64,000 bases of DNA. Source: Schmidtea polychroa. Taxonomy: Eukaryota. A model generated the notes under the pieces. It searched no databases and was not told the DNA's origin. It saw only the letters and a program-made list of their open reading frames with translations. This document shows, one piece after another, positions 1 to 64,000 of the stretch (positions are counted from its first letter, which is position 1; the number at the start of each line of letters is the position of its first letter). The DNA lies in contig CM097885.1 of NCBI GenBank assembly GCA_044892525.1, forward strand, positions 18,044,001-18,108,000, given 5' to 3'. Position numbers and translations under genes: made by a program.

Positions 1-274
1 AGAATTAAGAATACGGAAAGGCAGAAAGGGATCAAACCAAAGAGAAACCGAGGAAAAAGAGAGTCGGGAGAACTAAAGGAACAAAAGGTGAATATTGTTT
101 GTTGGCAAAGCATCAACGCCGAGCGGAGAATCGTATAAAACTTTGATTGGTAATTGTAGCGTGATAATAAATTGTGAACTTGTTGTTTCAATATACGTTG
201 GGTCGTTCATTGTTTTAATTTAAAGAACACCAGGAGTCAGAGAGAACCGACTAGAAATAACCCAAAACCCAACA
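1..274 (+). repeat. 3' part of the 5' LTR
   Basis: Lies just upstream of the PBS, ends in ...AACA, contains AATAAA at ~166; start is outside the window. Confidence 0.6.
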
Positions 275-300: not shown

Positions 301-532
301 GAAAGTCGGAGGGAAATTATTGAAAGCTAGTGAAAAAGGAATTATAAAAAGAATTAGTACTGACGTGAGTGAAAGTCGGCTTAGAAGTTTGAAAATAGTG
401 TTAACGAGATTATAAAAGGCTATTATTGGGAGATTTAAAAGAAGTTGAAAAGTAATTTTAAATTATTGTTTAACGTTTGAAGTTTAGCTCAAAGTGAACC
501 GATACAACCTCAGAAGTCAGAAACAAGTCCAA

Positions 533-2458
533 ATGGCAAATGATAATGCTGTTATGCCTCTCAATAGAGAGATGATTGATTTCGCAAGTTGCCAGAAATT
601 ACCCGTCAATCAATATGGAGGAGACCCTGTTGAATTTGCAGATTTCATGGGAGATTATTATATGTACGCCTCAGCATACGGATGGACACAAGCCATTATG
701 GTTCAGAGATTCCCACTCTATCTGAAAGGTGCGGCAAGAGAAGCCTGGCAGCAAGTCGACAAACGAAATGTTGGCAATGATTGGACAAAATTGAAGGATG
801 CAATGGCACTGAAACTGGTTGGTGGAGATATCAAAAGAATCATGCGACAGAAATTTTATAATCGAGTTCAAGGTCCAGATGAATCGGTCAGTGAGTTTGC
901 TTATCATCTGACCACTTTAGCAGATAAAGCCTTTGAAGTTAAACCAGACCAAGCAGATATGGCCAAGCAGGTTAAAGAGCCATTAGAAGATCAGTTTATA
1001 ACCGGAGTCCACTCCGAAATCAAAAAAGCCCTATGTTATGTGGATTTTTCCAATTTTGATGAGCTCGTGAAGAAAGCCATGAAGATAGAGCTGAATTTAA
1101 AAAGTGCAAAAAGATCAGATGCTTTTGGAGTTAATGTGGAGAGACGTGAGCGATCAATTACGCCTGTGAGAGCACCATGGGATGAAAAGAAAATAAATCA
1201 GATCAGTAGTCCAATTTTGAGACCAAATAATAGATTTCAAGCCAGTAGATCAGCCATGAACGTACAATCAAATGGACAGGTAAATAATCCTCAATGCGAA
1301 CATTGCAAAAAGTCTGGACACTACTCAAATCAATGTTGGTTCAAATATGGGAAAAATCCCAGCCCTAACAAGAGATTCACAGAAAACAAGCGGATCAGCA
1401 GTGATGTCGAATGCTATCGATGCGGAAAGAAAGGGCATATTAGCAGAAACTGTTTTACCAGATCAAGGTCATCGTCAACGTCACCTTCACCACAAAGGGA
1501 CAAAGTGAATACAAATGGACAGATCCAATGTCATTCGTGCAAGGGATACGGCCACATGGCGCGATCATGCCCAAGGAACTCAGAAAGATTCAGCAGACCT
1601 ATCTTAAAGAAATCAATCAGATTCCAAGAAGATATGCCAAACACCAGTAACATGACATATGCTCAGAGAGAGGAATTTCAAGACAAAATGGAAAAGGAAT
1701 TTCGAGAAATGCGACAGAAGCTAAACAAACTAGTGGCGAAATTTGAATCAGATGAGGAAACTGAATCTCATATGATAATTGGAACCGTGTCAGAAGGTGA
1801 GGGAAAACCTGCCACGAAAGTGCGAAATATCGCTTCAGATGAGAATCCAACTGCACTGTTAGCCCGAGTTGAAAAATGGCTTGAGAAAATGGAAACTGAC
1901 AACTCCCAGTTGAAACGATGGATCGCAGAACTCAGTGTGATGTCACTAACCCAAAGCGAACTAAAGAGAGCCATAAATTTATGTGCAAAGTTATTCAAAG
2001 GAAACAGAGACGATGAGATACTTAAAGAAATGCAAAGGTTTGGCAAGGCTTTACGGTCAACAAGGGATTTAGCTGATATCATAGTGGAAACGACGGGACT
2101 TGATAATGTGAAGTGCCAATTCCGTTTAAACGCCTACGGACAAATCAGAGAGTTAAAGGAGCGAATACTGCGTCAATACAGTGGATGGCAAGTGCAATTA
2201 AAATTCGAAAATCGATGTCTGGAAGACGAAGAGTACTTAGTAGATTGCGGTCTGATACCAGGCTGGAAAAATAAAGTAAATGTTATTAATGCTGTTAATA
2301 CTTTGAATTCAGACAGACAAAATTGGGAAAAGATTCTAGCAGATTTACAAGATACCCTGTATGCAGGGAATAGAGATAAAATTAATGCGAGTATCGACTT
2401 CATAATGAGCATCGAAATGGATCGAGACATGAAAGAAGGGTTGTTTGAATGCACCTAA
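533..2458 (+). CDS. gag: Gag (capsid-like region, 3 CCHC zinc knuckles, coiled coil) with a C-terminal ubiquitin-like domain and the start of a Bcl-2-like domain
   Basis: YLKGAAREAW and RVQGPDESVSEFAYHL capsid motifs; CEHCKKSGHYSNQC, CYRCGKKGHISRNC, CHSCKGYGHMARSC; UBL-like IRELKERI..QLKFENRCLEDEEYLVDCGL; first ATG at 533. Confidence 0.9.
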   Translation: MANDNAVMPLNREMIDFASCQKLPVNQYGGDPVEFADFMGDYYMYASAYGWTQAIMVQRFPLYLKGAAREAWQQVDKRNVGNDWTKLKDAMALKLVGGDIKRIMRQKFYNRVQGPDESVSEFAYHLTTLADKAFEVKPDQADMAKQVKEPLEDQFITGVHSEIKKALCYVDFSNFDELVKKAMKIELNLKSAKRSDAFGVNVERRERSITPVRAPWDEKKINQISSPILRPNNRFQASRSAMNVQSNGQVNNPQCEHCKKSGHYSNQCWFKYGKNPSPNKRFTENKRISSDVECYRCGKKGHISRNCFTRSRSSSTSPSPQRDKVNTNGQIQCHSCKGYGHMARSCPRNSERFSRPILKKSIRFQEDMPNTSNMTYAQREEFQDKMEKEFREMRQKLNKLVAKFESDEETESHMIIGTVSEGEGKPATKVRNIASDENPTALLARVEKWLEKMETDNSQLKRWIAELSVMSLTQSELKRAINLCAKLFKGNRDDEILKEMQRFGKALRSTRDLADIIVETTGLDNVKCQFRLNAYGQIRELKERILRQYSGWQVQLKFENRCLEDEEYLVDCGLIPGWKNKVNVINAVNTLNSDRQNWEKILADLQDTLYAGNRDKINASIDFIMSIEMDRDMKEGLFECT

Positions 2459-5274
2459 CACGAACTGAGTTAGATCGAGATGTAATATTGACAGCGTTAG
2501 CCTATATAATATTGGAGATTGGTATTTATGGTTGTCTGGAAAATGACAGTTCAAAATCATTGATAAAGAAAGCTACGGAAATGACGAATAAATATTTGGC
2601 TAGGTGGATCGCAAACAATGGCGGATGGGAAAATTTGATACAAAAGGCTGAGAGCCCAAAAACCGAGACAGTGAGGAAAAAGGGAAAACTCGCATTTCCA
2701 TGGTTGATGATTTCTGTTATTATGTTATTGGGAATAATAAACACGACGAATTCCTTGGTGGCATACGACTGCTCCCAAACCGAAATGGGAAGAGTATATT
2801 CGTTGGTAAACGTAGCAGAGTGTTCGGATGCATATCCAGTAAAATTTAAAGTGACAAATCCAGTAAAATATTATGTATATCAAGAATCGGGATTTCGACG
2901 AGCAAAGGTGAGAGAGTGTACAGTGAAACGAACTACTTTTGTATTTTATTGTGGAAAATGGAGTCACTCATCGATGGTGAAAATGCAATCGATACCTAGA
3001 CCGATAGAAATAATTCCAGAGAATTGTTTGGTAGCCTTTGAAACAGGACAGTTGAAAATCAATGCAGATCTCAAACTACAAGCAAAGCTTAACCACAAAA
3101 TCCGTGAGACTGTAACCGTGCGAGGGATAATAAAGTCGAATGGTGATTGCCAAGGCGAGCCATACAAAGTAGACGATGCTATAATGGACAAAGCCGTGGT
3201 TGTGGAAGAGTACATGTCAGAATTAAGAGAATTTGATGGATCATTTGATGATGATACTGGTAAACTACAAACACATCCATTCTGCAACATGAAACAATCT
3301 AGCTGTCAGACAGGAGAATCAATCTTGGTGTACGATGTCGATACCAAAAAGTGCAATTTAGTGCAATTGAAGTCAATGAGTTTTAAAGAAATAACGGGAG
3401 AACAGATCAGGGAAAAGCCTGAGAAAATAAGAATGGATCCAGCAACGAGTACAACAACAAGAATCACACCTCTACGGATGAAAGATACTCCAACAGTGTT
3501 AATGTCAACCTCGGAGGAAGATGGGATGCGATTCCTGAGAAAAGAAACTAAAACAAAGTGTGGACAAAGTGTCTATGAGACAAATTATAAAGGTATATAT
3601 GTATCTCAGAAGATGATTACAGAGGCCCAAACAAACATACATGCCGGAGATATTAAGTTGACAAATTACTTTAATAACAAAATAGATTATTTATTTCACT
3701 TTGGTCAAAATACTGTTGAAAATGTGTACCGAGAAGTTATTATAAATGATTGCAATCTCAACAAAGAAATACTCCGAAATCGGATGGCAATGGCTATAAC
3801 CAATCCTAATTTGGTAGCACCAATGTTAATTGCAGAAAATGGAGTGTTCGCCAGAATTTTCGGTGAAGCACTATATAGCTATAAATGTAAAGCGGTACCA
3901 GTTAAACTGTCAAAGTATGACCAATGCACCAACGAGTTACCAGTGAATTTAAATGGAAAGTTGCGATTTATGGAGCCTGTAACACGAATCTTACTGGAAG
4001 AGGACGCGAAACCGAAAGTATTACAGTGTAATAGATTGTTAGCACCATTATACAGACTAACACCAGAATCTTGGATTGCATTACCAGATCATCGAGAAGT
4101 AAAGACACCGGAAAACTTAGAATTGACAGAATTACAATATCTGGTAAATTTTACGTCGTTAGAAAAATTGTCGCAAAGTGGAATTTACTCGAACGAAGAC
4201 ATTGAGGAAGCTCGCAGAAACTTGTTATTTCCATCAAAGAAAGAAAGAGTAATAATGGAAATGGTAGATACAATTCTCCCAAGCGGAAGTGGGAAGGTAA
4301 ATTATGAGTATTTGTTAACTCCAGATCATTACAAGAAAGCGACGTATAATACAATGAAAAAGATCTGGGGAAAGTTTATGTTCATTGGACAAGCATGTGC
4401 CGGATTGATTGGAATTTATGTAATATGTGTTGTAATCAAAGTAATAATATCGCAGGTCCTATCAACACACAGATTATATGCGATCACAGGTTGGTCGTGG
4501 AAACTAGTAATTGGTTGCATACCATTATTGGCTAGATTCTTCATTACTCATCATCAATATCAGGAGTTGGAGATACTCAAGGCTCGAATATTAAAGAAGA
4601 AAAAGGTGAGCTACGCGAGTACAACCCCTTCAAGGGACGAGAACAATGACAATGACAACGAGGGTGATAGTGCACCGTTATATGTTGACAATCAAGAACT
4701 AAGTGGAATGAATAAAGAAGCGTTAAGAACCTATCAAATCTTAAAAGAGCCACTGTTGAATGCGAGTAGCGTAGACACGTTTACAAAACTGTGTATACCA
4801 AAATCATTTATGCAACCAGCACCAGTGTATCCAGTTGATCGATTACGAGAGATGAAACCAGTGGAAAATATCGCATTACAATGTGAAGGAATGGTAGGAG
4901 AGAGAATCGAGCCTTCTAGCGCAGAGATCGAGAGAAAAAATATGTTAGGCTTACCATGCAACTACTCAATGATGACATTAACAAAAAGAGGAAAGCAACC
5001 CCGAATATTTATACAAATGAACAAACATAAAGTGGAAGCTTTAGTCGATTCGGGATCTAGTCACACAATAGTATCGGAAAATGTATTAAACGCGAAGGAA
5101 AACATGCGAATGAAGCCTACCGACGAAATAGTGAGGTCATTATCAAAAAATGAATTAAACATAATTGGACAACTTAACGTCATATTCCATATTGGAGATC
5201 GAATAATAGCGCACGATGCGCTCATAATGAAGGGAAGTCCAGTACGATGTCTGATCGGCATGGATATATTATAG
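2449..5274 (+). CDS. Bcl-2-like C-terminal half + TM/signal + envelope glycoprotein (chuvirus G / class III-like) + TM + aspartic protease
   Basis: BH2-like WIANNGGWENL (2605-2637); hydrophobic stretch 2689-2739 followed by LVAYDCS; Cys-rich ectodomain of ~540 aa; TM ~4375-4455 then LYAITGWSWKL; ALVDSGSSHTIVS and CLIGMDIL protease motifs. Confidence 0.85.
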   Translation: MHLTRTELDRDVILTALAYIILEIGIYGCLENDSSKSLIKKATEMTNKYLARWIANNGGWENLIQKAESPKTETVRKKGKLAFPWLMISVIMLLGIINTTNSLVAYDCSQTEMGRVYSLVNVAECSDAYPVKFKVTNPVKYYVYQESGFRRAKVRECTVKRTTFVFYCGKWSHSSMVKMQSIPRPIEIIPENCLVAFETGQLKINADLKLQAKLNHKIRETVTVRGIIKSNGDCQGEPYKVDDAIMDKAVVVEEYMSELREFDGSFDDDTGKLQTHPFCNMKQSSCQTGESILVYDVDTKKCNLVQLKSMSFKEITGEQIREKPEKIRMDPATSTTTRITPLRMKDTPTVLMSTSEEDGMRFLRKETKTKCGQSVYETNYKGIYVSQKMITEAQTNIHAGDIKLTNYFNNKIDYLFHFGQNTVENVYREVIINDCNLNKEILRNRMAMAITNPNLVAPMLIAENGVFARIFGEALYSYKCKAVPVKLSKYDQCTNELPVNLNGKLRFMEPVTRILLEEDAKPKVLQCNRLLAPLYRLTPESWIALPDHREVKTPENLELTELQYLVNFTSLEKLSQSGIYSNEDIEEARRNLLFPSKKERVIMEMVDTILPSGSGKVNYEYLLTPDHYKKATYNTMKKIWGKFMFIGQACAGLIGIYVICVVIKVIISQVLSTHRLYAITGWSWKLVIGCIPLLARFFITHHQYQELEILKARILKKKKVSYASTTPSRDENNDNDNEGDSAPLYVDNQELSGMNKEALRTYQILKEPLLNASSVDTFTKLCIPKSFMQPAPVYPVDRLREMKPVENIALQCEGMVGERIEPSSAEIERKNMLGLPCNYSMMTLTKRGKQPRIFIQMNKHKVEALVDSGSSHTIVSENVLNAKENMRMKPTDEIVRSLSKNELNIIGQLNVIFHIGDRIIAHDALIMKGSPVRCLIGMDIL

Positions 5275-8200
5275 CAGCTGGACGGAGTCTCACTTGATTT
5301 AAAGACAGGTAATTTGATAGCAGGAGAAACAGGAGAAATAATTCACAGGGCAGGTGAAGTGTTTGTGAATCAGACATTGACAATACCACCACAATCGGAG
5401 ATGGTATATTGTGCAAATACCATGAGTGTGGATAATGGTGATTTTATATTCGAACCAAATCAAACGCTAGTCGAAAAATATGATTTACCGATATGTGACG
5501 AAGTTGTCAAAGTGGAAAATCAGATAGTACCAGTCCATATAACGAATAGCAGCAAAAAACCGGTTCAGCTACACCCAAAAACAAAATTGGGAAAATTATC
5601 AAAAATGTCTATTGAAACAAATTGTAAAATACCAAGAAACGTCAAGGTGTATAAGGAGCCTGAAGTGGTAAGCAATGATTTAAATGAGATGCAGAAAAAG
5701 GAATTCACAAAACTGTTGAGGAAATACCGAGATATCTTTGCCAAACACGAATATGATTTGGGTTTAACCAATGTAATTGAGCATGAAATACCGTTATTAG
5801 ACGAAACTCCAATAAAAATAAAGCCATACAGAATCCCCTACGTTCATCAAGATGAAAGCGATAGACAGATTACAGCAATGAAGGAATTTGGAATAATTCG
5901 AGATAGCGCGTCACCATTCTCCTCATCAATAGTGATAGTTAAGAAAAAAGATGGAGACTTACGATTTTGCGTAGATTATCGGAAGCTAAATCAAGTTACA
6001 AGGAAAGACACTTATCCAATTCCGGTACCCCAAGAAATGTTTGATCAAATGGGAGAGGCACGATATTTCACAGTTATTGATTTAAACAAAGGGTACAATC
6101 AATTTAGAGTAAAAGAGGAAGATAGAGGAAAGACGGCGTTCTCGGATGGCAAAGGACTGTATGAGTTCAATGTGTTACCATTTGGAATAACAGGAGCCCC
6201 AGCTACATTCCAACGAGGAATGAATTATGTGTTACGAGGAATTCGACATGCATTGGTATATATCGACGATATAATAATATTTTCAAATGATTTTGAAGAA
6301 CATCTGAAGGATGTAGAAACTGTATTTAAACGGCTCAAAAGTGCAAAATTAAAAATCAAACCATCGAAATGTGAATGGGGCAAAGCAGAAGTGATTTATG
6401 TAGGACATATAATATCACGGCGAGGGTTACAAACTAATCCAGATAACATCAAAAAAGTGGAAGAGTACCCAGTACCAAAAGATGCCGATGAGGTTAGACA
6501 ATTTTTAGGTTTGGCGAGCTATTACAGAAAATTTATAAAAGATTTCTCTCATATCGCACAACCATTGAATACGTTACTAAAGAAAAACAATAAATTTATT
6601 TGGGGACAAATGCAACAAAACGCTTTCAATACATTAAAAGAGAAATTAGTAACAACTCCTATATTAAGATGTCCAGATTTTACAAAACAATTTATCTTGA
6701 TGACGGATGCAAGCAACGTTGCATTGGGTGCGGTATTGGGACAAAAATTTGAAGGTGAAAAGGACCATGTAATAGCATACGCAAGCAGATCATTGAGGCC
6801 TCACGAGAAAAACTACTCAACGATTGAAAAGGAAACGTTAGCGTTAGTGTATGGAATTACTACTTTTAGACAATATTTATTGGGCAGAAAATTTACTGTT
6901 TATACAGATCATAATCCATTACAGTGGTTAATGAAACACAGAGATTCAGCCAGTAAGTTAATACGATGGTCAATTGCCCTCCAAGAATACGACTTTGAGA
7001 TTAAATACCGGACAGGTAAAGCTAACGCGAATGCAGATGCAATGTCGAGAATCCCAGAAAATAATAGTGAAGGGACACCTGAAAAAGTGGAAGGCACTAT
7101 ATTCGCAGCAATCAAAGCTGTTAATGATATGTCTGAACTTCAAAATGATCAGGAAAACGATAGTGAATTAAAACAATTTATGGAACAAGCGGTCAAAATA
7201 AGAAAAGAACAAGACTGGAAACGACTTACAGATGCAAACAGCAAATATGTAATTCATAATGGAATACTTAAATGTTGGAAAAATGGGGAAGCATTAATTA
7301 TTATACCAGCCAAGCACAGAGATGCATTACTGATGCAGTATCATGATGGAGCGTTGGGAGGTCATTTGTCAACGCGCAAGACGCTATCAAGATTAAAATT
7401 GAAATACTTTTGGCCGACAATGGAACAAGACGTGAAAAATTGGAGTAACAGTTGCAAAGTATGCATCACCCGCAGAAATACTGGTAAAAAGATTAAAGTA
7501 CCATTAAAACCGATGCCAGTACCTGCAGCACCAATGGAGATGACGGCAATGGATATTCTGGGACCATTACCGGAAACAACAAAAGGAAACAAATACATTG
7601 TTGTTTTTTGTGACTACTTTACCAAATGGCCAGAAGCATACGCTATTCCAAACCAAAAAGCAGATACGATTGCTAGAATATTTGTGGAAAACATAATATT
7701 TCGCTATGGTACTCCAAAGAAATTGTTAACTGATCAAGGAAAGAACTTTCAAAGCGAGATGTTTAAATCAATCACAGACTTATTTGGAATTTGGAAATTG
7801 AATACGTCACCATATCATCCACAAACTGATGGATTGGTGGAACGATTTAATGGGACACTGATAAATATGATCTCATCATATGTGAATCGAAAACAGAAAG
7901 ATTGGGACGACTTCATAAAGCCGTGTCTGTTTGCCTACAGAAATGCAGTAAATCAAAGTACAGGAGAGACCCCTTTTTACTTGATGTATTTAAGGAAAAA
8001 TAATATGCCGATTGATCTCAAATTCCAACCACCAATTTCACAATATATGGAGATACCCGATTATAAAGCAGGTTTGACAATAAAGCACAACCAAGAGAAA
8101 TATAAAGAATCATACGATAAAAAAGCACATGCGCATGGCATAAAGATTGGAGATCTAGTATATCTGAACAGACCGGAACCTCTCAAAGGTTTATCGCCTA

Positions 8201-9081
8201 AATTGCAAAGACCATTTAAAGGACCCTACAAAGTGTGCGACACCACCGAAACCAATTTGAAGTTATTACCATTCAGGAGTAAAAAGGCTAACCCGATGAT
8301 TGTGCATGCAAATCGATGTAAACTAGTGCCAGAGGAAGATGAATCTAGATACCCCTTAAGATCCAAGCAGAATAAAGTAACGGGTCAAACAAAATTGAAA
8401 CAGAAATTCACGAAAAATCCAACACCAGTCAGCTACATCAATAAGATATTATATGTAGCAATAATGCTGATGTTAGTAACAGTTGCGAGCGGCAAAAAGA
8501 TTGATTTACCATATGCGGTAAACAAAATCCGAGGAATGGAGAAAATACATATATATTCCACTCTAACAAATATAGTATGGAGCTGTAAATGCGAGATCGC
8601 AGACCAAATAGAAATTATTAATTTACTAGCCAATACGGCACCAGTGGTAGAACTGAATTATGATAAAGATATAGTTGCGGTACGAAAGTTAAAGCCAAAT
8701 TACAAATACCAATGGCTGTTGAGACAGAACATGTCAAAGTGGTACACGCAAATTCCGATAGAAGTGCACACAAAAGAGATGCGAAACTTGATCGAGATAG
8801 AACCAGAGATAAACGGAATCAATATATATTGGAAGCCAGTGGACTTGGTGAAAGTGCGACTCACATTTCAAGGGTTAAATGTCGACACCCTTAACTCGCG
8901 AAAATCATTTATCCGCTACGAGAAATTGAAAATGAATCAAAATTATTCAGTTAATGCAAACTACTACGAGAACATATGCCTCGAAAATGGAACGGTAGTG
9001 AGAAACCAATGGTCACGATTTAAGAGTGAGACCCAGTCTATCTATCTCAGAGACGAGTCAAATCGTATAACCCTTATATAG
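5275..9081 (+). CDS. pol: Pol (RT, RNase H, integrase with GPY/F) fused to a signal peptide and FN3-like ectodomain; in frame with the upstream ORF across one TAG
   Basis: LRFCVDYRKLN, LPFG, YIDD (6259-6270), TDAS, HHCC zinc finger, D-D-E (MDIL, TDQG, VERFN), PFKGPY; hydrophobic ILYVAIMLMLVTVASG after the integrase. Confidence 0.95.
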   Translation, partial: QLDGVSLDLKTGNLIAGETGEIIHRAGEVFVNQTLTIPPQSEMVYCANTMSVDNGDFIFEPNQTLVEKYDLPICDEVVKVENQIVPVHITNSSKKPVQLHPKTKLGKLSKMSIETNCKIPRNVKVYKEPEVVSNDLNEMQKKEFTKLLRKYRDIFAKHEYDLGLTNVIEHEIPLLDETPIKIKPYRIPYVHQDESDRQITAMKEFGIIRDSASPFSSSIVIVKKKDGDLRFCVDYRKLNQVTRKDTYPIPVPQEMFDQMGEARYFTVIDLNKGYNQFRVKEEDRGKTAFSDGKGLYEFNVLPFGITGAPATFQRGMNYVLRGIRHALVYIDDIIIFSNDFEEHLKDVETVFKRLKSAKLKIKPSKCEWGKAEVIYVGHIISRRGLQTNPDNIKKVEEYPVPKDADEVRQFLGLASYYRKFIKDFSHIAQPLNTLLKKNNKFIWGQMQQNAFNTLKEKLVTTPILRCPDFTKQFILMTDASNVALGAVLGQKFEGEKDHVIAYASRSLRPHEKNYSTIEKETLALVYGITTFRQYLLGRKFTVYTDHNPLQWLMKHRDSASKLIRWSIALQEYDFEIKYRTGKANANADAMSRIPENNSEGTPEKVEGTIFAAIKAVNDMSELQNDQENDSELKQFMEQAVKIRKEQDWKRLTDANSKYVIHNGILKCWKNGEALIIIPAKHRDALLMQYHDGALGGHLSTRKTLSRLKLKYFWPTMEQDVKNWSNSCKVCITRRNTGKKIKVPLKPMPVPAAPMEMTAMDILGPLPETTKGNKYIVVFCDYFTKWPEAYAIPNQKADTIARIFVENIIFRYGTPKKLLTDQGKNFQSEMFKSITDLFGIWKLNTSPYHPQTDGLVERFNGTLINMISSYVNRKQKDWDDFIKPCLFAYRNAVNQSTGETPFYLMYLRKNNMPIDLKFQPPISQYMEIPDYKAGLTIKHNQEKYKESYDKKAHAHGIKIGDLVYLNRPEPLKGLSPKLQRPFKGPYKVCDTTETNLKLLPFRSKKANPMIVHANRCKLVPEEDESRYPLRSKQNKVTGQTKLKQKFTKNPTPVSYINKILYVAIMLMLVTVASGKKIDLPYAVNKIRGMEKIHIYSTLTNIVWSCKCEIADQIEIINLLANTAPVVELNYDKDIVAVRKLKPNYKYQWLLRQNMSKWYTQIPIEVHTKEMRNLIEIEPEINGINIYWKPVDLVKVRLTFQGLNVDTLNSRKSFIRYEKLKMNQNYSVNANYYENICLENGTVVRNQWSRFKSETQSIYLRDESNRITLI

Positions 9082-9099
9082 AAACGATATATAGTATAA

Positions 9100-9570
9100 A
9101 CGATATATAGAAAATCAGGAAATGATGAAAGAGTTGTTATTATCTACAAACAAAAAACCCTGACTATATTAGATGCCGGTAATCATTTTTTTACACTTTA
9201 CACTTCTGATTTAGAGACGGCATGGGAATTAACAGTTAAATATCAGCGATGGATAACCGATCCAGGCAGATGGCAAACAGTTTTCGTGGAAGTCAAGACA
9301 ATCAATGAATCGAAACGAAAATCATATACAACCACATCACCTTTCCAATTACCGACCCAAGAGACGACAAAACCTAACTCAAACAAACTAATGATGATAA
9401 ATTCGGATTTGACAGTCAACTATTGTGAATATCTCATTTACATTTTAATAACAGGTTTTCTCATCTTATCAATAACATTCATAATCATCACCATCTTGAT
9501 ATGTGTAAAAGAGAGACAACTAACTATCCTTCAACCACCATCATATTCATATTATGAGACAAGACTATAA
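9100..9570 (+). pseudogene. In-frame continuation of pol: third FN3-like repeat, S/T stalk, TM, cytoplasmic PPSY and C-terminal ETRL
   Basis: Same frame as pol, open 9100-9570; separated only by two stops inside a local AAACGATATATAG duplication (9079-9110). Confidence 0.7.
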
Positions 9571-9752: not shown

Positions 9753-9998
9753 ATGCAAGAAGCCTCGGAGATGACATGCAAAGAGTGTAAAACAAGTACG
9801 CAAGAACTAAAACAAAAGTTTCGTAGCATGCAGGGCAGAATAACAGATTTGGAGGAAGAAAACTTCCGTCTGAAAAGGCGGTTGGACCGTTTGGAAATCT
9901 TATTGTTTCAACACGAAGCCGATTTCGCGATGTTTCGAATGAGAGTAGAAGAAATGGAGGAATCGGAAGATGATGGTGAGATAAATCAATTAGACTAA
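9753..9998 (+). CDS. Small coiled-coil (leucine-zipper-like) accessory protein with acidic tail
   Basis: Heptad pattern ITDLEEENFRLKRRLDRLE, CxxC, acceptor-like TTTCAG just before the ATG, AATAAA right after the stop. Confidence 0.55.
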   Translation: MQEASEMTCKECKTSTQELKQKFRSMQGRITDLEEENFRLKRRLDRLEILLFQHEADFAMFRMRVEEMEESEDDGEINQLD

Positions 9999-13707: not shown

Positions 13708-14929
13708 ATGATTTGTGGTAAATCTGAATTATGTATATTTGATAGACCATCGCCCCAGGCTGTAATAAAATTTGGGGCTTTTGAGGAAGTTTTTCCTATG
13801 AATTCAATTACCGATAGTAGAAATGATATAGAGTTTTATATTAATGGTTCGCAAACTGAATATTTAGATTTGAACGATACTTTATTGACTGTTCAGATCA
13901 AGGTTGTAGATAAAGATAGAAAAGTTTTGGATGCCAATGCAGATGTAATACCGAACAATTTCCTGTTTCATACTCTTTTTAAATGCAGTGTTGGGATTTA
14001 ATAATATCAAGATTGAGGGTGGAAATAATACATTCATTCACAAGGCATTAATAGAAACTATTTTAAATTACAATTCCGATACTAAAAATACATGCCTTAC
14101 TCCTATGGGTTATGCAGCAGCAGATGATGAAAGAAAAAAGTGGGTTAAAGGCTCAAAGGTTTTCACCATGTGCTCATCATTACAACTCGATTTTATGGAT
14201 CAACCGAAATATTTACTACCGGGAGTTAATGTACATATTAGACTGAAAAGGTCTGATTCTGTATTATCTCTTACTAGTGCAAATGGTGCACCAATATGTC
14301 AATTAGTTGATGCAAAATTATTGGTGAGAAGAGTTAGAGTAGACCCCTTAGTATTAGCTGGTCATCAATTGGGTCTTAATTCAAAACATGCAATTTATCC
14401 ATTAAAAACAAAGGAAATTGTACAATTCGCTATTGCTAAAGGTGCTTCATCATTCTATAAAGAACAAATATTTGGTGACAGAAGAATGCCTAATTTTATT
14501 CTGATAACATTTCAAAGTGAAGCACAATATAATGGATCATATATTGCGTCCAGCTCAATTTTCAAAAACTTTGGTGTTACATCATTGACTTTGTCGAAAA
14601 ATACTGATTATAGAGAAACATATATTCAAGATTTCGAAAATGACAATTACTGTGCGACATATATGCAGAGTATTGTTAGAAATCTGGGTTATTTAGATAA
14701 AAATTTGAATTGTGGAATAACTCTAGAAGAATTTAAAAGCAAATACCCATTTTTTACATTTGTTTCAGCCCCTGATTTTGATTTAAATCAGAGTCAATTA
14801 CCTCAAAATGGAAATTTACGACTGGATATAAAGTTTGCAAAAGCTATTACTGAACCAGTACATGTTACAATATATGGAGTATTTGAAAATGAAATTCAAA
14901 TTACTGCAAATAGAACTGTGTTGGTATAA
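13708..14929 (+). pseudogene. Maverick/Polinton (adintovirus-like) major capsid protein, frameshifted at ~13982
   Basis: KSELCIF N-terminus, IEFYING..EYLDLNDTLL, QPKYLLPGVNVHIRLKR, GNLRLDIKFAK, VFENEIQI. Confidence 0.85.
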
Positions 14930-14956: not shown

Positions 14957-15340
14957 ATGGAGTAAGTTTTTTTATACTGTTTAATTTATTAAAGTAGTTC
15001 TGTTCAGGTTAATCGAATTGGAAAACAAATATTGGGAAATGAATTTGTTGGAGTTTTTCCTCTTGATAAAATTCCATATTTGAGCAATAATCAAGCAATA
15101 ATCGTCAATACTCAATCGTCTCATCTTGGTGGAGAACATTGGATAGCTATATATATGAAACCTGGTAATATATTCGTGTTCGATCCTATGGGTTTTTATT
15201 ACCCAGCTTTGTTGATATCAAAACTACAAACAATGGGGAAACCTATCGTGTATAATAAAACTATGTTTCAAAATCCATTGACCCAAACATGTGGTCAACA
15301 TTGTTTAGCTTGGTTGTTGTATAAAAAATTTGATGTTTAA
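14957..15340 (+). CDS. Polinton adenain-like cysteine protease
   Basis: FVGVFPLD, IVNT..GEHW, FDPMG, Q...CGQHC; ATG at 14957 is in frame if 14962-14994 is spliced. Confidence 0.85.
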
Positions 15341-21828: not shown

Positions 21829-21860
21829 TATAAAGTGATGATTTCTTGGTAGCAGCATTT

Positions 21861-24537
21861 ATTATTTAAAACAATAAAGTGATAATTTAAGCCTTTTGCT
21901 GCGAATAATGTATTAAATGAAAAAATTAGTCGTTGTCAATCTCCTGGAATTTAGCAATCTCCTTCCCGAAAATACATTTCTATCTTTCTTTTATTTCTTT
22001 TTTCTTAATTCTCATTGGGTATAAATATAATATAATGATATACTTTCTTTTTTTTTAAATTTATTATATTTTTTATATATTTTCAGTTATTCTCAAGGTC
22101 AATGACAACAGATCAAATTGATGATTTCATTGATTTCTTCTTTAGTGTTGATTTTTGGCCGTCTGTTTATGATGAGAATTGCTTCTTTGAATCTGACATT
22201 TTTCTTTTGGATGTTTCCATTAACTATGATTTCGATTGAAATATTTTTCTTCCTCTCTGTTGGTTGACATTGTTGCAGATGTCTGTTTATCGAGGATGTT
22301 CACCAGGATCTAGATGTTCTTTAACTCTTTGGTGCAAGGTCCTGAGTGTACTTCCAATGTTGATTTCATTGCATACATTGCACGTGATGCAATAGACGAT
22401 GTTTTTTCTAAAGCACATATCTTTTGGTGTCTGGGAGCTTTTCATTGTGCAATTGTTTTCTCTATTTATGTTACCTGCCAGAGCCCTTCTCGATGTCCAA
22501 GATTTATGTGCTATCCGAATTGGAAGACCGGTACGTTTAAGTTCTTTCAGGATCTTGAAATTTTATTTATTTATTAGAAAATTTAGAATTATTAGTGATG
22601 ATGAAGCAATTCATGATGATGATGATTTTTCAGCTATTCATGATGATGATGATGTTCTAGCAATTAATGAAGCAATTAATGATGATGATACAGAATCTTG
22701 CATTATAGAGAAACATACAAGGATGACAGCCGCATGTCACCAAACACCATCGAAATGAAGATCAACAAAGTATGAAAAGTCATAGCTTTGGAAATGAAGC
22801 TCAACAACAGAATAACCAGCACTTTCGTCACAAAATTTCTGATCTTCCCAACTTCTACCACCTAATTAAAACTCACAAAGAGGCTCCTGGTATCAGAATT
22901 AGACCTATAGTGTCCAACACAAATGGACCAACAACTAAAACAAGTTGGCTCCTTTCAAAGATCTTGAAACTTTTATTGGACACGATACCACCCCATCTTC
23001 AAAGCAGCGACTGCCTCGTGACAAGATTAAATAATAACATAACTTCTCATAGAGAATTCAAATACTCATTCAGTCTTGATGCCGTATCACTATACACATC
23101 TATCGAACCAAAAGAGGCTATTCAATGTTTAGAAAATAAATTAAGAGAAAACAATTTGTTAATAAAGGAAATAAATATGGAGAATATCACCAAACTGCTT
23201 ACTGTTATCCTCAAGAACACCTATTTTACCTTTGAGCAAAATATCTATAAACAAGTTAAAGGTCTGTCTTTGGGTTCTAGCATATCATGACTGCTAGCCA
23301 TCATCTTTATGGATAACCTCAAACTACAGACACGGATACTATACAACCCATCGGTTTCTATGCAAGATATGTTGATGATATCTTCATCACGACTAAAAGC
23401 AGAAAAGAAGCGGAGGAAATATTTCATACATTCAATACGGTTCACCGAGATATTAAGTTCGAAATCGAATATCCGGAATAAGATAGATCCCTCAATTTAT
23501 TGGATTTTAGAAATAAAATAGAAGCAAATACTCCAACATACGGGTACTACAGAAAACCAGCTCGCAAAAAAATATTTATGCACCAAAGATCAGCGCTTCC
23601 ATACTTACAGAAAGTACATGTCATAAGAAACGAGAAACGAATAATAACCAATAGATGCATTGAAGAAAACGAAAACTTAAAACAACAATCAAATTTCAAT
23701 AAAAACCTACACAGAAACGGACACCAAGGTGAGGCATTGAAAGAATGAATTCTACCCCAAGAAGATCTAGGGAATTAACACAAAAGAATCAGAAATATTT
23801 CTATCTTAATATCCCATTCATCAGTGACATACTCGACTTCAAGATCCTGAAAGAACTTAAACGTACCGGTCTTCCAATTCGGATAGCACATAAATCTTGG
23901 ACATTAGGAAAAGCTCTGGCAAAGAACATAAATAGAGAAAACAATTGCACAATATAAAACTCCCAGACACAGAAAGATATGTGCTTTAGAGAAAACATCG
24001 TCTATTGCATCACGTGCAATGTATGCAATGAAATAAACATTGGAAGTACACTCAGGATCTTGCACCAAAGAGTTAAAGAACATCTAGATCCTGGTGGATC
24101 ATCCTCGACAAACAGACATCTGCAACAATGTCAACCAACAGAGAGGAAGAAAAATATTTCAATCGAAATCATAGTTAATGAAAACATCCAAAAGAAAAAT
24201 GTCAGATTCAAAGAAGCAATTCTCATCATAAACAGACGGCCAAAAATCAACACTAAAGAAGAAATCAATGAAATCATCAATTTGATCTGTTGTCATTGAC
24301 CTTGAGAATAACTGATAATATATAAAAAATATAATAAATTTAAAAAAAAAGAAAGTATATCATTATATTATATTTATACCCAATGAGAATTAAGAAAAAA
24401 GAAATAAAAGAAAGATAGAAATGTATTTTCGGGAAGGAGATTGCTAAATTCCAGGAGATTGACAACGACTAATTTTTTCATTTAATACATTATTCGCAGC
24501 AAAAGGCTTAAATTATCACTTTATTGTTTTAAATAAT
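21861..24537 (+). mobile_element. Degenerate Penelope-like element (RT + GIY-YIG endonuclease) with a ~700 bp inverted pseudo-LTR
   Basis: KTHK..IRPIVS, SLDAVSLYTSI, KGLSLGS, RYVDDIF in a shifted frame, IVYCITC..IGST..RVKEH; 21861-22559 is the reverse complement of 23838-24537. Confidence 0.9.
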
Positions 24538-24680
24538 AATAATAATAATGATAATAATAATAATAATAATGACAATAATAACAACAATAATAACAACAAT
24601 AATAACAACAATAATAATAATTATTATTATTATAACAATAATAATTAAGAATAACAACTTAAAAAATAATAATAACACTC
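24533..24680. repeat. (AAT/AAC)n microsatellite
   Basis: Direct inspection. Confidence 0.9.
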
Positions 24681-31543: not shown

Positions 31544-34500
31544 AAATCAAAGTACAGGAGAGACCCCTTTTTACTTGATGTATTTAAGGAAAAATAATAT
31601 GCCGATTGATCTCAAATTCCAACCACCAATTTCACAATATATGGAGATACCCGATTATAAAGCAGGTTTGACAATAAAGCACAACCAAGAGAAATATAAA
31701 GAATCATACGATAAAAAAGCACATGCGCATGGCATAAAGATTGGAGATCTAGTATATCTGAACAGACCGGAACCTCTCAAAGGTTTATCGCCTAAATTGC
31801 AAAGACCATTTAAAGGACCCTACAAAGTGTGCGACACCACCGAAACCAATTTGAAGTTATTACCATTCAGGAGTAAAAAGGCTAACCCGATGATTGTGCA
31901 TGCAAATCGATGTAAACTAGTGCCAGAGGAAGATGAATCTAGATACCCCTTAAGATCCAAGCAGAATAAAGTAACGGGTCAAACAAAATTGAAACAGAAA
32001 TTCACGAAAAATCCAACACCAGTCAGCTACATCAATAAGATATTATATGTAGCAATAATGCTGATGTTAGTAACAGTTGCGAGCGGCAAAAAGATTGATT
32101 TACCATATGCGGTAAACAAAATCCGAGGAATGAAGAAAATACATATATATTCCACTCTAACAAATATAGTATGGAGCTGTAAATGCGAGATCGCAGACCA
32201 AATAGAAATTATTAATTTACTAGCCAATACGGCACCAGTGGTAGAACTGAATTATGATAAAGATATAGTTGCGGTACGAAAGTTAAAGCCAAATTACAAA
32301 TACCAATGGCTGTTGAGACAGAACATGTCAAAGTGGTACACGCAAATTCCGATAGAAGTGCACACAAAAGAGATGCGAAACTTGATCGAGATAGAACCAG
32401 AGATAAACGGAATCAATATATATTGGAAGCCAGTGGACTTGGTGAAAGTGCGACTCACATTTCAAGGGTTAAATGTCGACACCCTTAACTCGCGAAAATC
32501 ATTTATCCGCTACGAGAAATTGAAAATGAATCAAAATTATTCAGTTAATGCAAACTACTACGAGAACATATGCCTCGAAAATGGAACGGTAGTGAGAAAC
32601 CAGTGGTCACGATTTAAGAGTGAGACCCAGTCTATCTATCTCAGAGACGAGTCAAATCGTATAACCCTTATATAGAAACGATATATAGTATAAACGATAT
32701 ATAGAAAATCAGGAAATGATGAAAGAGTTGTTATTATCTACAAACAAAAAACCCTGACTATATTAGATGCCGGTAATCATTTTTTTACACTTTACACTTC
32801 TGATTTAGAGACGGCATGGGAATTAACAGTTAAATATCAGCGATGGATAACCGATCCAGGCAGATGGCAAACAGTTTTCGTGGAAGTCAAGACAATCAAT
32901 GAATCGAAACGAAAATCATATACAACCACATCACCTTTCCAATTACCGACCCAAGAGACGACAAAACCTAACTCAAACAAACTAATGATGATAAATTCGG
33001 ATTTGACAGTCAACTATTGTGAATATCTCATTTACATTTTAATAACAGGTTTTCTCATCTTATCAATAACATTCATAATCATCACCATCTTGATATGTGT
33101 AAAAGAGAGACAACTAACTATCCTTCAACCACCATCATATTCATATTATGAGACAAGACTATAAATTGTGATCTGCATGAATAGTGTATAAAAAAAACTA
33201 TATATTACATTTATATTAACAATGTGCATGTTTTATAAGTACCATAGGATGAACTGTGTAATTTGTTTGAGATTCGAAGCGAGGTGTTGATGCTTTGCGA
33301 ATAAAGAGTGATACAAAAAAAAATAACTATCATTTAATTTCAGAGAATGCAAGAAGCCTCGGAGATGACATGCAAAGAGTGTAAAACAAGTACGCAAGAA
33401 CTAAAACAAAAGTTTCGTAGCATGCAGGGCAGAATAACAGATTTGGAGGAAGAAAACTTCCGTCTGAAAAGGCGGTTGGACCGTTTGGAAATCTTATTGT
33501 TTCAACACGAAGCCGATTTCGCGATGTTTCGAATGAGAGTAGAAGAAATGGAGGAATCGGAAGATGATGGTGAGATAAATCAATTAGACTAAAAAAATAA
33601 ATTATTTAAACGGACCCTGTTGGTGTTTTTTCGTCCTCGAGAAAAAAAAATAATAGTTAAATAATTATAAGTAAATTAACAAATAATCAAATGAATAAAC
33701 AAATTGATATAAATAAATAAGTAAAAAAGTGATAAATTAAATGAATGAATAATAGATAAAAATGAACAAAGTTAAACGAGCAAATAGAATAACTCAAATA
33801 AATGTTGCAAATAATGAAATGACTACCTTAAATGAGCATTAGAAATAAATAATATGGCTGATTAGTAATTAATGAATTAGCATAACTATATAGCAATGGG
33901 TAACCCACTGGGCGAGAGAACAAAATTTTAAATAAGTAAGGAATAATTTAGTAGTAACAAAGACTAATCGCGAAGAGGGACACAATTACCCCACCCTTTC
34001 TAGCATAAATTAAAAACAAAGGTATGCTGAACATTTATTCAAAGTTTATTCGTCATCAGAGTCCAACAGAACGGGACTTTGGATGCCACAGTCCCATTCC
34101 CTGCGTACATTGCAAGGCGGGCGTCGTTCAAACCTACTGCCTGTATCCACACAGGCAAAGGTACGTTTCAATCCCTTTCGACGCGGTGGTAAAGGGACCC
34201 TGAAAAAGAAATTAAAAAAACCTGTTAGTATGGCAGTTAAATAACCATTGCATAACATCGAGATGTTCAAACTTAGGTTCTGGCACAGCCTAAAATAGTA
34301 AGGGTTGAAAAGAAAAAACGAAATAAATACTATGTAAAACTCCGTACCATGGCGCCCTCGACAAATAATTAGTGCAGGGAAGTAATTGATTTTAAGAATT
34401 ACGTAATAAATTAATAAGTATAAATACGGCTAAAATTGTCAGAAAAATACGAGTAGCTGTAATTAGAGGTTTGCTTTTAGTATAAATACAAAATCAAAAA

Positions 34501-62643: not shown

Positions 62644-64000
62644 AAATCAAAGTACAGGAGAGACCCCTTTTTACTTGATGTATTTAAGGAAAAATAATAT
62701 GCCGATTGATCTCAAATTCCAACCACCAATTTCACAATATATGGAGATACCCGATTATAAAGCAGGTTTGACAATAAAGCACAACCAAGAGAAATATAAA
62801 GAATCATACGATAAAAAAGCACATGCGCATGGCATAAAGATTGGAGATCTAGTATATCTGAACAGACCGGAACCTCTCAAAGGTTTATCGCCTAAATTGC
62901 AAAGACCATTTAAAGGACCCTACAAAGTGTGCGACACCACCGAAACCAATTTGAAGTTATTACCATTCAGGAGTAAAAAGGCTAACCCGATGATTGTGCA
63001 TGCAAATCGATGTAAACTAGTGCCAGAGGAAGATGAATCTAGATACCCCTTAAGATCCAAGCAGAATAAAGTAACGGGTCAAACAAAATTGAAACAGAAA
63101 TTCACGAAAAATCCAACACCAGTCAGCTACATCAATAAGATATTATATGTAGCAATAATGCTGATGTTAGTAACAGTTGCGAGCGGCAAAAAGATTGATT
63201 TACCATATGCGGTAAACAAAATCCGAGGAATGGAGAAAATACATATATATTCCACTCTAACAAATATAGTATGGAGCTGTAAATGCGAGATCGCAGACCA
63301 AATAGAAATTATTAATTTACTAGCCAATACGGCACCAGTGGTAGAACTGAATTATGATAAAGATATAGTTGCGGTACGAAAGTTAAAGCCAAATTACAAA
63401 TACCAATGGCTGTTGAGACAGAACATGTCAAAGTGGTACACGCAAATTCCGATAGAAGTGCACACAAAAGAGATGCGAAACTTGATCGAGATAGAACCAG
63501 AGATAAACGGAATCAATATATATTGGAAGCCAGTGGACTTGGTGAAAGTGCGACTCACATTTCAAGGGTTAAATGTCGACACCCTTAACTCGCGAAAATC
63601 ATTTATCCGCTACGAGAAATTGAAAATGAATCAAAATTATTCAGTTAATGCAAACTACTACGAGAACATATGCCTCGAAAATGGAACGGTAGTGAGAAAC
63701 CAGTGGTCACGATTTAAGAGTGAGACCCAGTCTATCTATCTCAGAGACGAGTCAAATCGTATAACCCTTATATAGAAACGATATATAGTATAAACGATAT
63801 ATAGAAAATCAGGAAATGATGAAAGAGTTGTTATTATCTACAAACAAAAAACCCTGACTATATTAGATGCCGGTAATCATTTTTTTACACTTTACACTTC
63901 TGATTTAGAGACGGCATGGGAATTAACAGTTAAATATCAGCGATGGATAACCGATCCAGGCAGATGGCAAACAGTTTTCGTGGAAGTCAAGACAATCAAT
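62641..64000 (+). mobile_element. Third copy of the Gypsy integrase tail/FN3 region
   Basis: Near-identical to 7947-9306. Confidence 0.92.

Follow-up and report, generated by a model that had tools for sequence, protein, structure and literature searches.

A predicted FN3-like membrane module fused in frame to the integrase end of a Burro-type Ty3/gypsy element

The 64,000-nucleotide stretch of DNA analysed here (the window) carries a retroelement of Burro-type Ty3/gypsy order, gag-Ubl-Bcl2-like-gB-type fusogen-PR-RT-RH-IN, which is laid out in a single frame of ~3,334 codons. Pfam profiles place Gag and the order PR-RT-RH-IN in the element, and the gB-type Env lies in frame between Gag and Pol (PF24664, E 9e-95). 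This fusogen is ~97% identical, by eye, to that of the published Smed_errantivirus_2. The Bcl-2-like remnant has a weak Pfam score (E 0.11), and the spacer ahead of the reverse transcriptase is putatively dUTPase-like, judging by its position in Burro. A membrane module lies directly behind the integrase. The distinguished features are as follows.

1..274, + strand: 3′ part of the 5′ LTR (full LTR ~1,058 bp, starting ~790 bases before the window)
488..2458, + strand: Gag (Retrotrans_gag, 3 CCHC knuckles) and ubiquitin-like domain
2449..5274, + strand: Bcl-2-like remnant, internal signal, gB-type/Monjiviricetes fusion glycoprotein with its TM, aspartic protease
5275..8433, + strand: spacer, RT, RNase H, integrase
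8434..8493, + strand: internal signal sequence, in frame with the integrase (from hydropathy)
8530..8778, + strand: FN3-like domain 1 (model residues ~13-95)
8779..9051, + strand: FN3-like domain 2 (model residues ~96-186)
9052..9315, + strand: FN3/Ig-like domain 3, interrupted in the window copy; type of sandwich less certain
9079..9110, + strand: break, a 16-nt tandem near-duplication with two in-frame stops, private to 5 tandem-array copies
9316..9420, + strand: Thr/Ser/Pro-rich stalk, poorly conserved between lineages
9421..9507, + strand: transmembrane helix (hydropathy peak 3.1)
9508..9570, + strand: cytoplasmic tail, with PPSY at 9535-9546 and ETRL-stop at 9556-9570
32040..33164, + strand: tandem duplicate of the module, with the same break
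63140..64000, + strand: third tandem duplicate of the module, cut at the window end, with the same break

The window copy of the element is damaged. Compared with dispersed copies it is ~890 nt shorter at 2453, where its frame ends, and it lacks 39 nt near 8071; an in-frame stop at 5272-5274 closes the fusogen-protease part, and there is no 3′ LTR. Dispersed copies have paired 1,058-bp LTRs, 99.7-100% identical, with TG..CA ends, a polypurine tract and 4-bp target site duplications (3/3 tested), and the near-identity of the LTR pairs together with these duplications indicates recent movement.

The element lies within a tandem array (12000-64000) with units of ~23.6 kb and 31 kb and at least 5 copies of the module region. 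The array DNA is Polinton/Maverick-like, with an adenovirus-type protease (PF00770) at 14993-15340 and a 326-codon frame without a Pfam match at 13949-14929; 700-bp inverted repeats are present at 21859-24539. As tandem duplicates with 99.9% identity, the three module copies in the window are not independent of one another. Directly behind the module there is an 81-codon ORF (9753-9998, + strand) encoding a coiled-coil-like product with a CxxC motif, preceded by an acceptor-like TTTCAG. The same ORF occurs in the dispersed copy L159, in which ~5.4 kb without a long ORF separate the polyprotein stop from the 3′ LTR. In lineages B and C of the element an ORF of ~500 codons, exonuclease-like by eye, follows the polyprotein (L057 3267-4757, L055 2975-4546). 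In copy L034 (residues ~960-1057) the internal signal of the fusogen comes immediately behind the Bcl-2-like domain, to which it may provide a tail anchor after cleavage, comparable to those of cellular Bcl-2 proteins.

The RT-RH-IN frame (5275-9081) continues without a stop into the signal-like YINKILYVAIMLMLVTVASG (8434-8493) and then into two domains. The initial annotation had described a signal-like start, domains with W/Y patterns, a Thr/Ser stalk, a TM, PPSY and ETRL; all of these are present, and the tail of the window copy ends in PPSYSYYETRL. Hydropathy points to a type I layout, in which a signal sequence opens the module and a single TM helix precedes the short tail. Small residues occupy positions -3 and -1 of the likely signal cleavage site in all lineages aligned (by eye), and each module contains 4-12 N-glycosylation sequons. 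Only four strongly hydrophobic segments were distinguished over 3,237 residues of a natural copy (in the Bcl-2-like part, the fusogen signal, the fusogen TM and the second signal), the TM of the tail being the fifth of the polyprotein. No conserved Met precedes the second signal in the aligned lineages, so the module is not a separate ORF. An in-frame module composed of signal, ectodomain and TM thus supports the proposal, also made in that annotation, of a second surface-type protein behind the integrase. A spliced leader joined into position 8424 in one public run, which would supply a Met, was considered and rejected, because the joint exists as DNA at 27 genomic places and belongs to a deletion derivative. 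No GT..AG joint into the module was found among contigs of public runs, although contigs cannot exclude one.

In the window copy, in-frame stops at 9079-9081 and 9097-9099 interrupt the module, and from 9100 the same reading frame runs on into domain 3. The region 9075-9110, for which a comparison with other copies had been suggested, was examined at the DNA level in the best 30 of 381 candidates (41 matches listed). Among these, the break is present in 5/5 tandem-array copies and in 0/25 dispersed copies; 24/25 dispersed copies are open across it, from the signal to ETRL, and 23/25 of these best DNA matches are open from the integrase end as well. Contigs of 4/4 public runs, from two organisms, carry the unbroken form. 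Stop read-through or a programmed event at 9079-9099 was therefore rejected, the break being private to the tandem array and absent from the contigs of all four runs. A protein search gave a module without an internal stop in 96/110 copies and a frame of at least 3,333 codons in 11/110; these are the best-scoring 110 of 1,345 candidates, which biases them towards open copies.

FN3 domains typically have a Trp in strand B and a Leu..Tyr pair ahead of strand F. In the module, W29/L66/Y72 of domain 1 and W113/L145/Y151 of domain 2 are conserved at ≥90%, the corresponding positions of domain 3 more weakly. The Pfam fn3 profile (PF00041) gave no match above its cut-off in the module, and we therefore use the label FN3-like. 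A PDB sequence search with the module yielded no FN3 or receptor match, and shuffling tests showed no significant sequence similarity between the three domains (p 0.06, 0.21 and 0.76). Of the FN3 repeats initially proposed, the W/Y patterns and a predicted FN3-like fold thus stand, while a Pfam fn3 match and significant similarity between the repeats are lacking, so that the FN3 assignment draws on the predicted fold.

ESM features of the module gave 0.93 (170 shared), with 10/10 best matches in the fn3 clan; for domain 3 alone the value was 0.89, which we treat as a lead only. AlphaFold run on the single sequence was unusable (pLDDT 35). With 17 natural alignment rows the five models reached pLDDT 78, 59, 50, 47 and 41, of which one was confident, and the best (78.4) shows three all-beta domains (beta-sandwiches). 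The AlphaFold/Foldseek check for an FN3 fold, envisaged at the outset, returned tandem FN3 fragments (of fibronectin, CD45, Tie2 and LAR) as top matches over ~290 columns (E 2.1e-9, prob 1.0), and 231 matches in all reached E 0.001 or lower. Because the angles between domains differ, the TM-scores are low (0.28, rmsd 13). In VIA-align comparisons domain 1 was superposed on fibronectin extra-domain B (Z 7.8, rmsd 3.2, 81 aligned), domain 2 on 2w1n (Z 7.5, rmsd 2.9, 76 aligned) and domain 3 on 7kwc, a bacterial Ig-like domain (Z 9.5, rmsd 2.2, 81 aligned); most per-domain Z values are 7-8 and may reflect the common sandwich alone. Domains 1 and 2 are thus predicted to form seven-strand beta-sandwiches of ~90 residues, and modelled domain 3 fits FN3 and other Ig-like sandwiches equally. 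Viral structures matched were generic sandwich proteins, with alphaherpesvirus gC only at ranks 33-45.

The module is kept in 8 lineages at 24-63% identity and with an omega of 0.118, which argues against a chance frame. The initial annotation had made conservation of the 9100-9570 frame within the family a test of its proposal, and the eight lineages together with the 24/25 open dispersed copies bear it out. The three-domain form behind the integrase occurs in lineages B, D, E, F and G of the genome and in a metagenome lineage (P0003, P0006). In the distant lineage C, whose integrase is 50% identical, the module consists of a single, putatively related domain and a long Thr stalk. Lineage H (L091, one early-ending copy) and 10/63 truncated or frameshifted frames were left out of the count. 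The independent metagenome protein P0006 shows the same IN-signal-ectodomain-TM-STLV fusion, with 70% identity in the integrase and 24% in the tail. In the local lineages the integrase is 79-94% identical and the module 34-63%, a faster divergence of the kind expected of a host-facing surface protein.

The ectodomain is under purifying selection. A codon model of 7 natural copies from 5 lineages gave omega 0.118 for the ectodomain versus 0.023 for the integrase, with synonymous sites saturated across the autonomous lineages; invariant W, Y and R positions run through the lineages, and no lineage-wide omega >1 was seen. Synonymous distances in the module are 3-4x those in the adjacent integrase (0.20 vs 0.05 for L057 and L122, 0.47 vs 0.15 for L106 and L110; the misaligned NG86 row of B versus B2 integrase was left out), which suggests exchange of the module between subfamilies by recombination. 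Word-index searches with module and lineage C queries gave no match, and none of 234 pattern matches from a scan of metagenome contigs with P0003 was confirmed. The search for host receptor homologues suggested in the initial annotation found none among the sequences compared, and comparison of the module with 5 genomic FN3 loci, out of 104 matches, as possible donor genes gave a best tblastn E of 0.39.

A class I PDZ-type motif (S/T-x-hydrophobic at a free C-terminus, as defined in PMC4810129), noted earlier for the window copy, proved to be conserved in kind in the sequences of 7/8 lineages, whose tails are otherwise unalike and end in ETRL, ETFV, ETTV, ETFV, ETWV, STLV and S[ST][LW]V (SSLV/STLV/STWV), respectively. 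Such a motif occurs at 37/872 background ORF ends; the lineages are related, so its recurrence represents conservation and not independent trials. In lineage E the tail is 10 residues long and lacks the motif at 7/7 loci, while the ectodomain is kept; three of its matches have frames of 3,346 codons. The PPxY motif, initially read as a viral late domain, fared worse, since [PL]PxY is found in 1/8 lineages (lineage A only).

Two families of non-autonomous derivatives were also distinguished. In the first (L136-L157), found as a joint into the module at 27 genomic places, RT-RH-IN is missing in 14/14 fetched copies, and the region behind the protease is joined in frame to the second signal. The frame is open through to ETRL in 7/14, in a sample biased by the choice of 8 of the 14 from open copies. 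Shared changes (non-synonymous:synonymous) number 0:13 in Gag and 3:12 in the fusogen (p 7e-5 and 0.026) and are likewise mostly synonymous in the protease, so that Gag, Ubl-Bcl2, fusogen and protease show purifying selection (Fisher p 7e-5 to 0.03). For the module of this derivative no significant constraint was detected (14:16 shared vs 60:40 private, p 0.21). Judging from these sequences, the derivative appears to supply its own coat while borrowing reverse transcriptase and integrase. The second, high-copy family (L178-L191; 14 copies retrieved out of several dozen matches, with frames 1,305-1,333 codons long) encodes a Gag-Ubl-Bcl2-like part and the fusogen signal, which runs into an FN3-stalk-TM remnant with domain 2 deleted; there is no fusogen and no Pol. 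This remnant drifts (36 non-synonymous to 9 synonymous shared changes, PDZ motif absent in 11/14), hence an open frame alone is no proof of use. Both families keep the module frame, but they do not prove a need for it.

The order of hydrophobic segments (signal 1, TM 1, signal 2, TM 2), combined with established signal and stop-transfer rules, suggests two type I glycoproteins, with the Gag and Pol blocks tethered on the cytosolic side. The module is the in-frame last part of a single polyprotein. In the alternating topology predicted, the cytosol would hold Gag-Ubl-Bcl2 and PR-RT-IN and the lumen both ectodomains, with all parts made 1:1. A signal peptidase cut would free the module from the integrase, yielding a type I membrane glycoprotein predicted to carry three FN3-like domains. 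The tail of the fusogen runs into Pol, so that of the two membrane proteins only the module has a free C-terminus, and a PDZ-type motif is kept at that end.

Herpesvirus gB-type fusogens depend on partner proteins. We tentatively favour, with a confidence somewhat short of an even chance, the reading that this polyprotein-derived type I glycoprotein is an adhesion or attachment helper to the gB-type fusogen, acting in cell-to-cell transfer at PDZ-scaffolded contacts. The PDZ-type tail would place the module at scaffolded cell contacts, where it would aid the fusogen in transfer between touching cells; cleavage, surface delivery, PDZ binding, adhesion and a role in transfer are all steps that we infer. 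Our preference follows from the PDZ motif kept at the free C-terminus of the module and from the use of such a motif by HTLV-1 Env, whose class I motif, according to the available part of PMC4810129, binds DLG1 at virological synapses and serves also in cell fusion. A broader proposal, which we regard as doubtful, is that these flatworm elements are enveloped retroelements and use a two-protein entry system new to retroviruses and errantiviruses: a class III fusogen and a captured FN3 adhesion molecule, both derived from a polyprotein that sandwiches Pol, would form a PDZ-anchored “transfer synapse”, and the Pol-less satellites with their own coat would be its parasites.

Among the alternatives, a receptor mimic or host modulator is unlikely, though it has to be weighed with some care. 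The FN3 ectodomain would act as a decoy that engages an immune factor or another host ligand, while the tail would occupy PDZ scaffolds involved in polarity or survival signalling; the module would then be host-tuning cargo, like the Ubl and Bcl-2-like domains, with no direct role in entry. Cytokine receptors and receptor phosphatases (IFNAR1, gp130, CD45) are among the structures closest to it in fold, its tail has no signalling domain, and the fast evolution and apparent module swapping (dS 0.20 vs 0.05 and 0.47 vs 0.15) fit host conflict. Burro elements carry apoptosis and ubiquitin cargo, as recorded in the available text of PMC6431247. However, our searches found no sequence link to a host receptor and no lineage-wide omega >1. 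The superinfection block, in which the module occupies or down-regulates a surface molecule used by sister elements, would suit the diverged ectodomains of at least 8 co-resident lineages and the retention of the module by high-copy non-autonomous families; we consider it quite improbable, there being no known receptor, and the present results do not separate block from attachment.

An assembly or sorting device, in which the second signal and PDZ tail tether Pol to the membrane and direct Gag-fusogen-Pol into exosomes or a particular membrane domain, with the ectodomain as a folded spacer, is improbable as well, if less so than such a block. It would explain why the tail is best conserved at its PDZ motif, why lineage C manages with one domain and a long Thr stalk, and why the frames of both derivative families lead into the membrane module. 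Signal cleavage would nevertheless make the module a separate chain, the ectodomain keeps its invariant W, Y and R positions at an omega of 0.12, and lineage E retains the ectodomain without the motif. A PPxY/NEDD4 late-domain role in budding is very improbable: PPSY is found in both tail length variants of lineage A, and Gag lacks PPxY, PTAP and YPxL, but the motif is absent from 7/8 lineages, and a YPxxxL-like stretch sits in the cytosolic part of the fusogen. We give the least credence to a passenger, i.e. a captured host exon kept merely for its open frame. Drift in one derivative family agrees with it, whereas the codon model, with an omega of 0.118 among autonomous lineages whose synonymous sites are saturated, already largely rules it out; the position of the module as the last part of the frame, where one stop could remove it, also speaks against it.

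For most env-carrying retrotransposons the mechanism of reaching new cells is elusive, according to the available text of PMC13524379, and outside Drosophila the route is open; under the attachment-helper reading, the module is a selected, fast-evolving candidate for the partner of the fusogen. Its putative docking motif can be tested, and the host animal is open to RNAi and imaging. If the reading is true, the module would be a clear example of an animal adhesion or receptor fold acquired by a retroelement.

The element itself is known, and an FN3-like membrane module was not found in the searched literature. The GAG-ENV-POL HSV/gB-type errantiviruses of Chary and Hayashi (PMC13524379), with Smed_errantivirus_2, have the same gene order and fusogen type in the available text, which records 215 copies for S. 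mediterranea; the window glycoprotein differs from the Smed_errantivirus_2 ectodomain part at ~7/251 residues (by eye), which makes a planarian the likely host. The terms “fibronectin” and “FN3” are absent from the main text of that paper, and “fibronectin” also from its supplementary files; a second membrane protein is not described in the available text. Burro/GYPSM1 giant planarian gypsy elements share a single polyprotein with Gag, CCHC, Ubl, a BCL2-like domain and a mononegavirus-like Env between Gag and Pol, and are longer (~4,900-5,100 aa vs 3,334 aa for the window element), as given in the available part of PMC6431247. Unlike them, the window element has no BIR, MATH or ankyrin domain in Pfam. 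The main text of PMC6431247 does not contain “fibronectin” and mentions no FN3-TM module, and literature searches covering the available text of further open-access papers, including PMC8532177, gave no description of the module.

Animal FN3 molecules (fibronectin, CD45, LAR, Tie2, contactins) have the same tandem FN3-like fold and type I layout, but the module is 9-14% identical to them, lacks a Pfam fn3 match and a signalling domain, and no donor gene was found in the loci compared. Two-protein entry is established for herpesviruses (gB with gC, gD or gH-gL) and paramyxoviruses (F with HN, H or G). With these systems the element shares a fusogen accompanied by a second surface glycoprotein, a likeness of arrangement for which no homology is shown. 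HTLV-1 Env, as described in the available part of PMC4810129, is likewise a membrane protein ending in S/T-x-hydrophobic and tied to cell contacts. There the PDZ motif is carried by the fusogen, whereas here, as predicted from sequence, it lies on a separate, non-fusogenic protein, and the tail of the fusogen runs into Pol.
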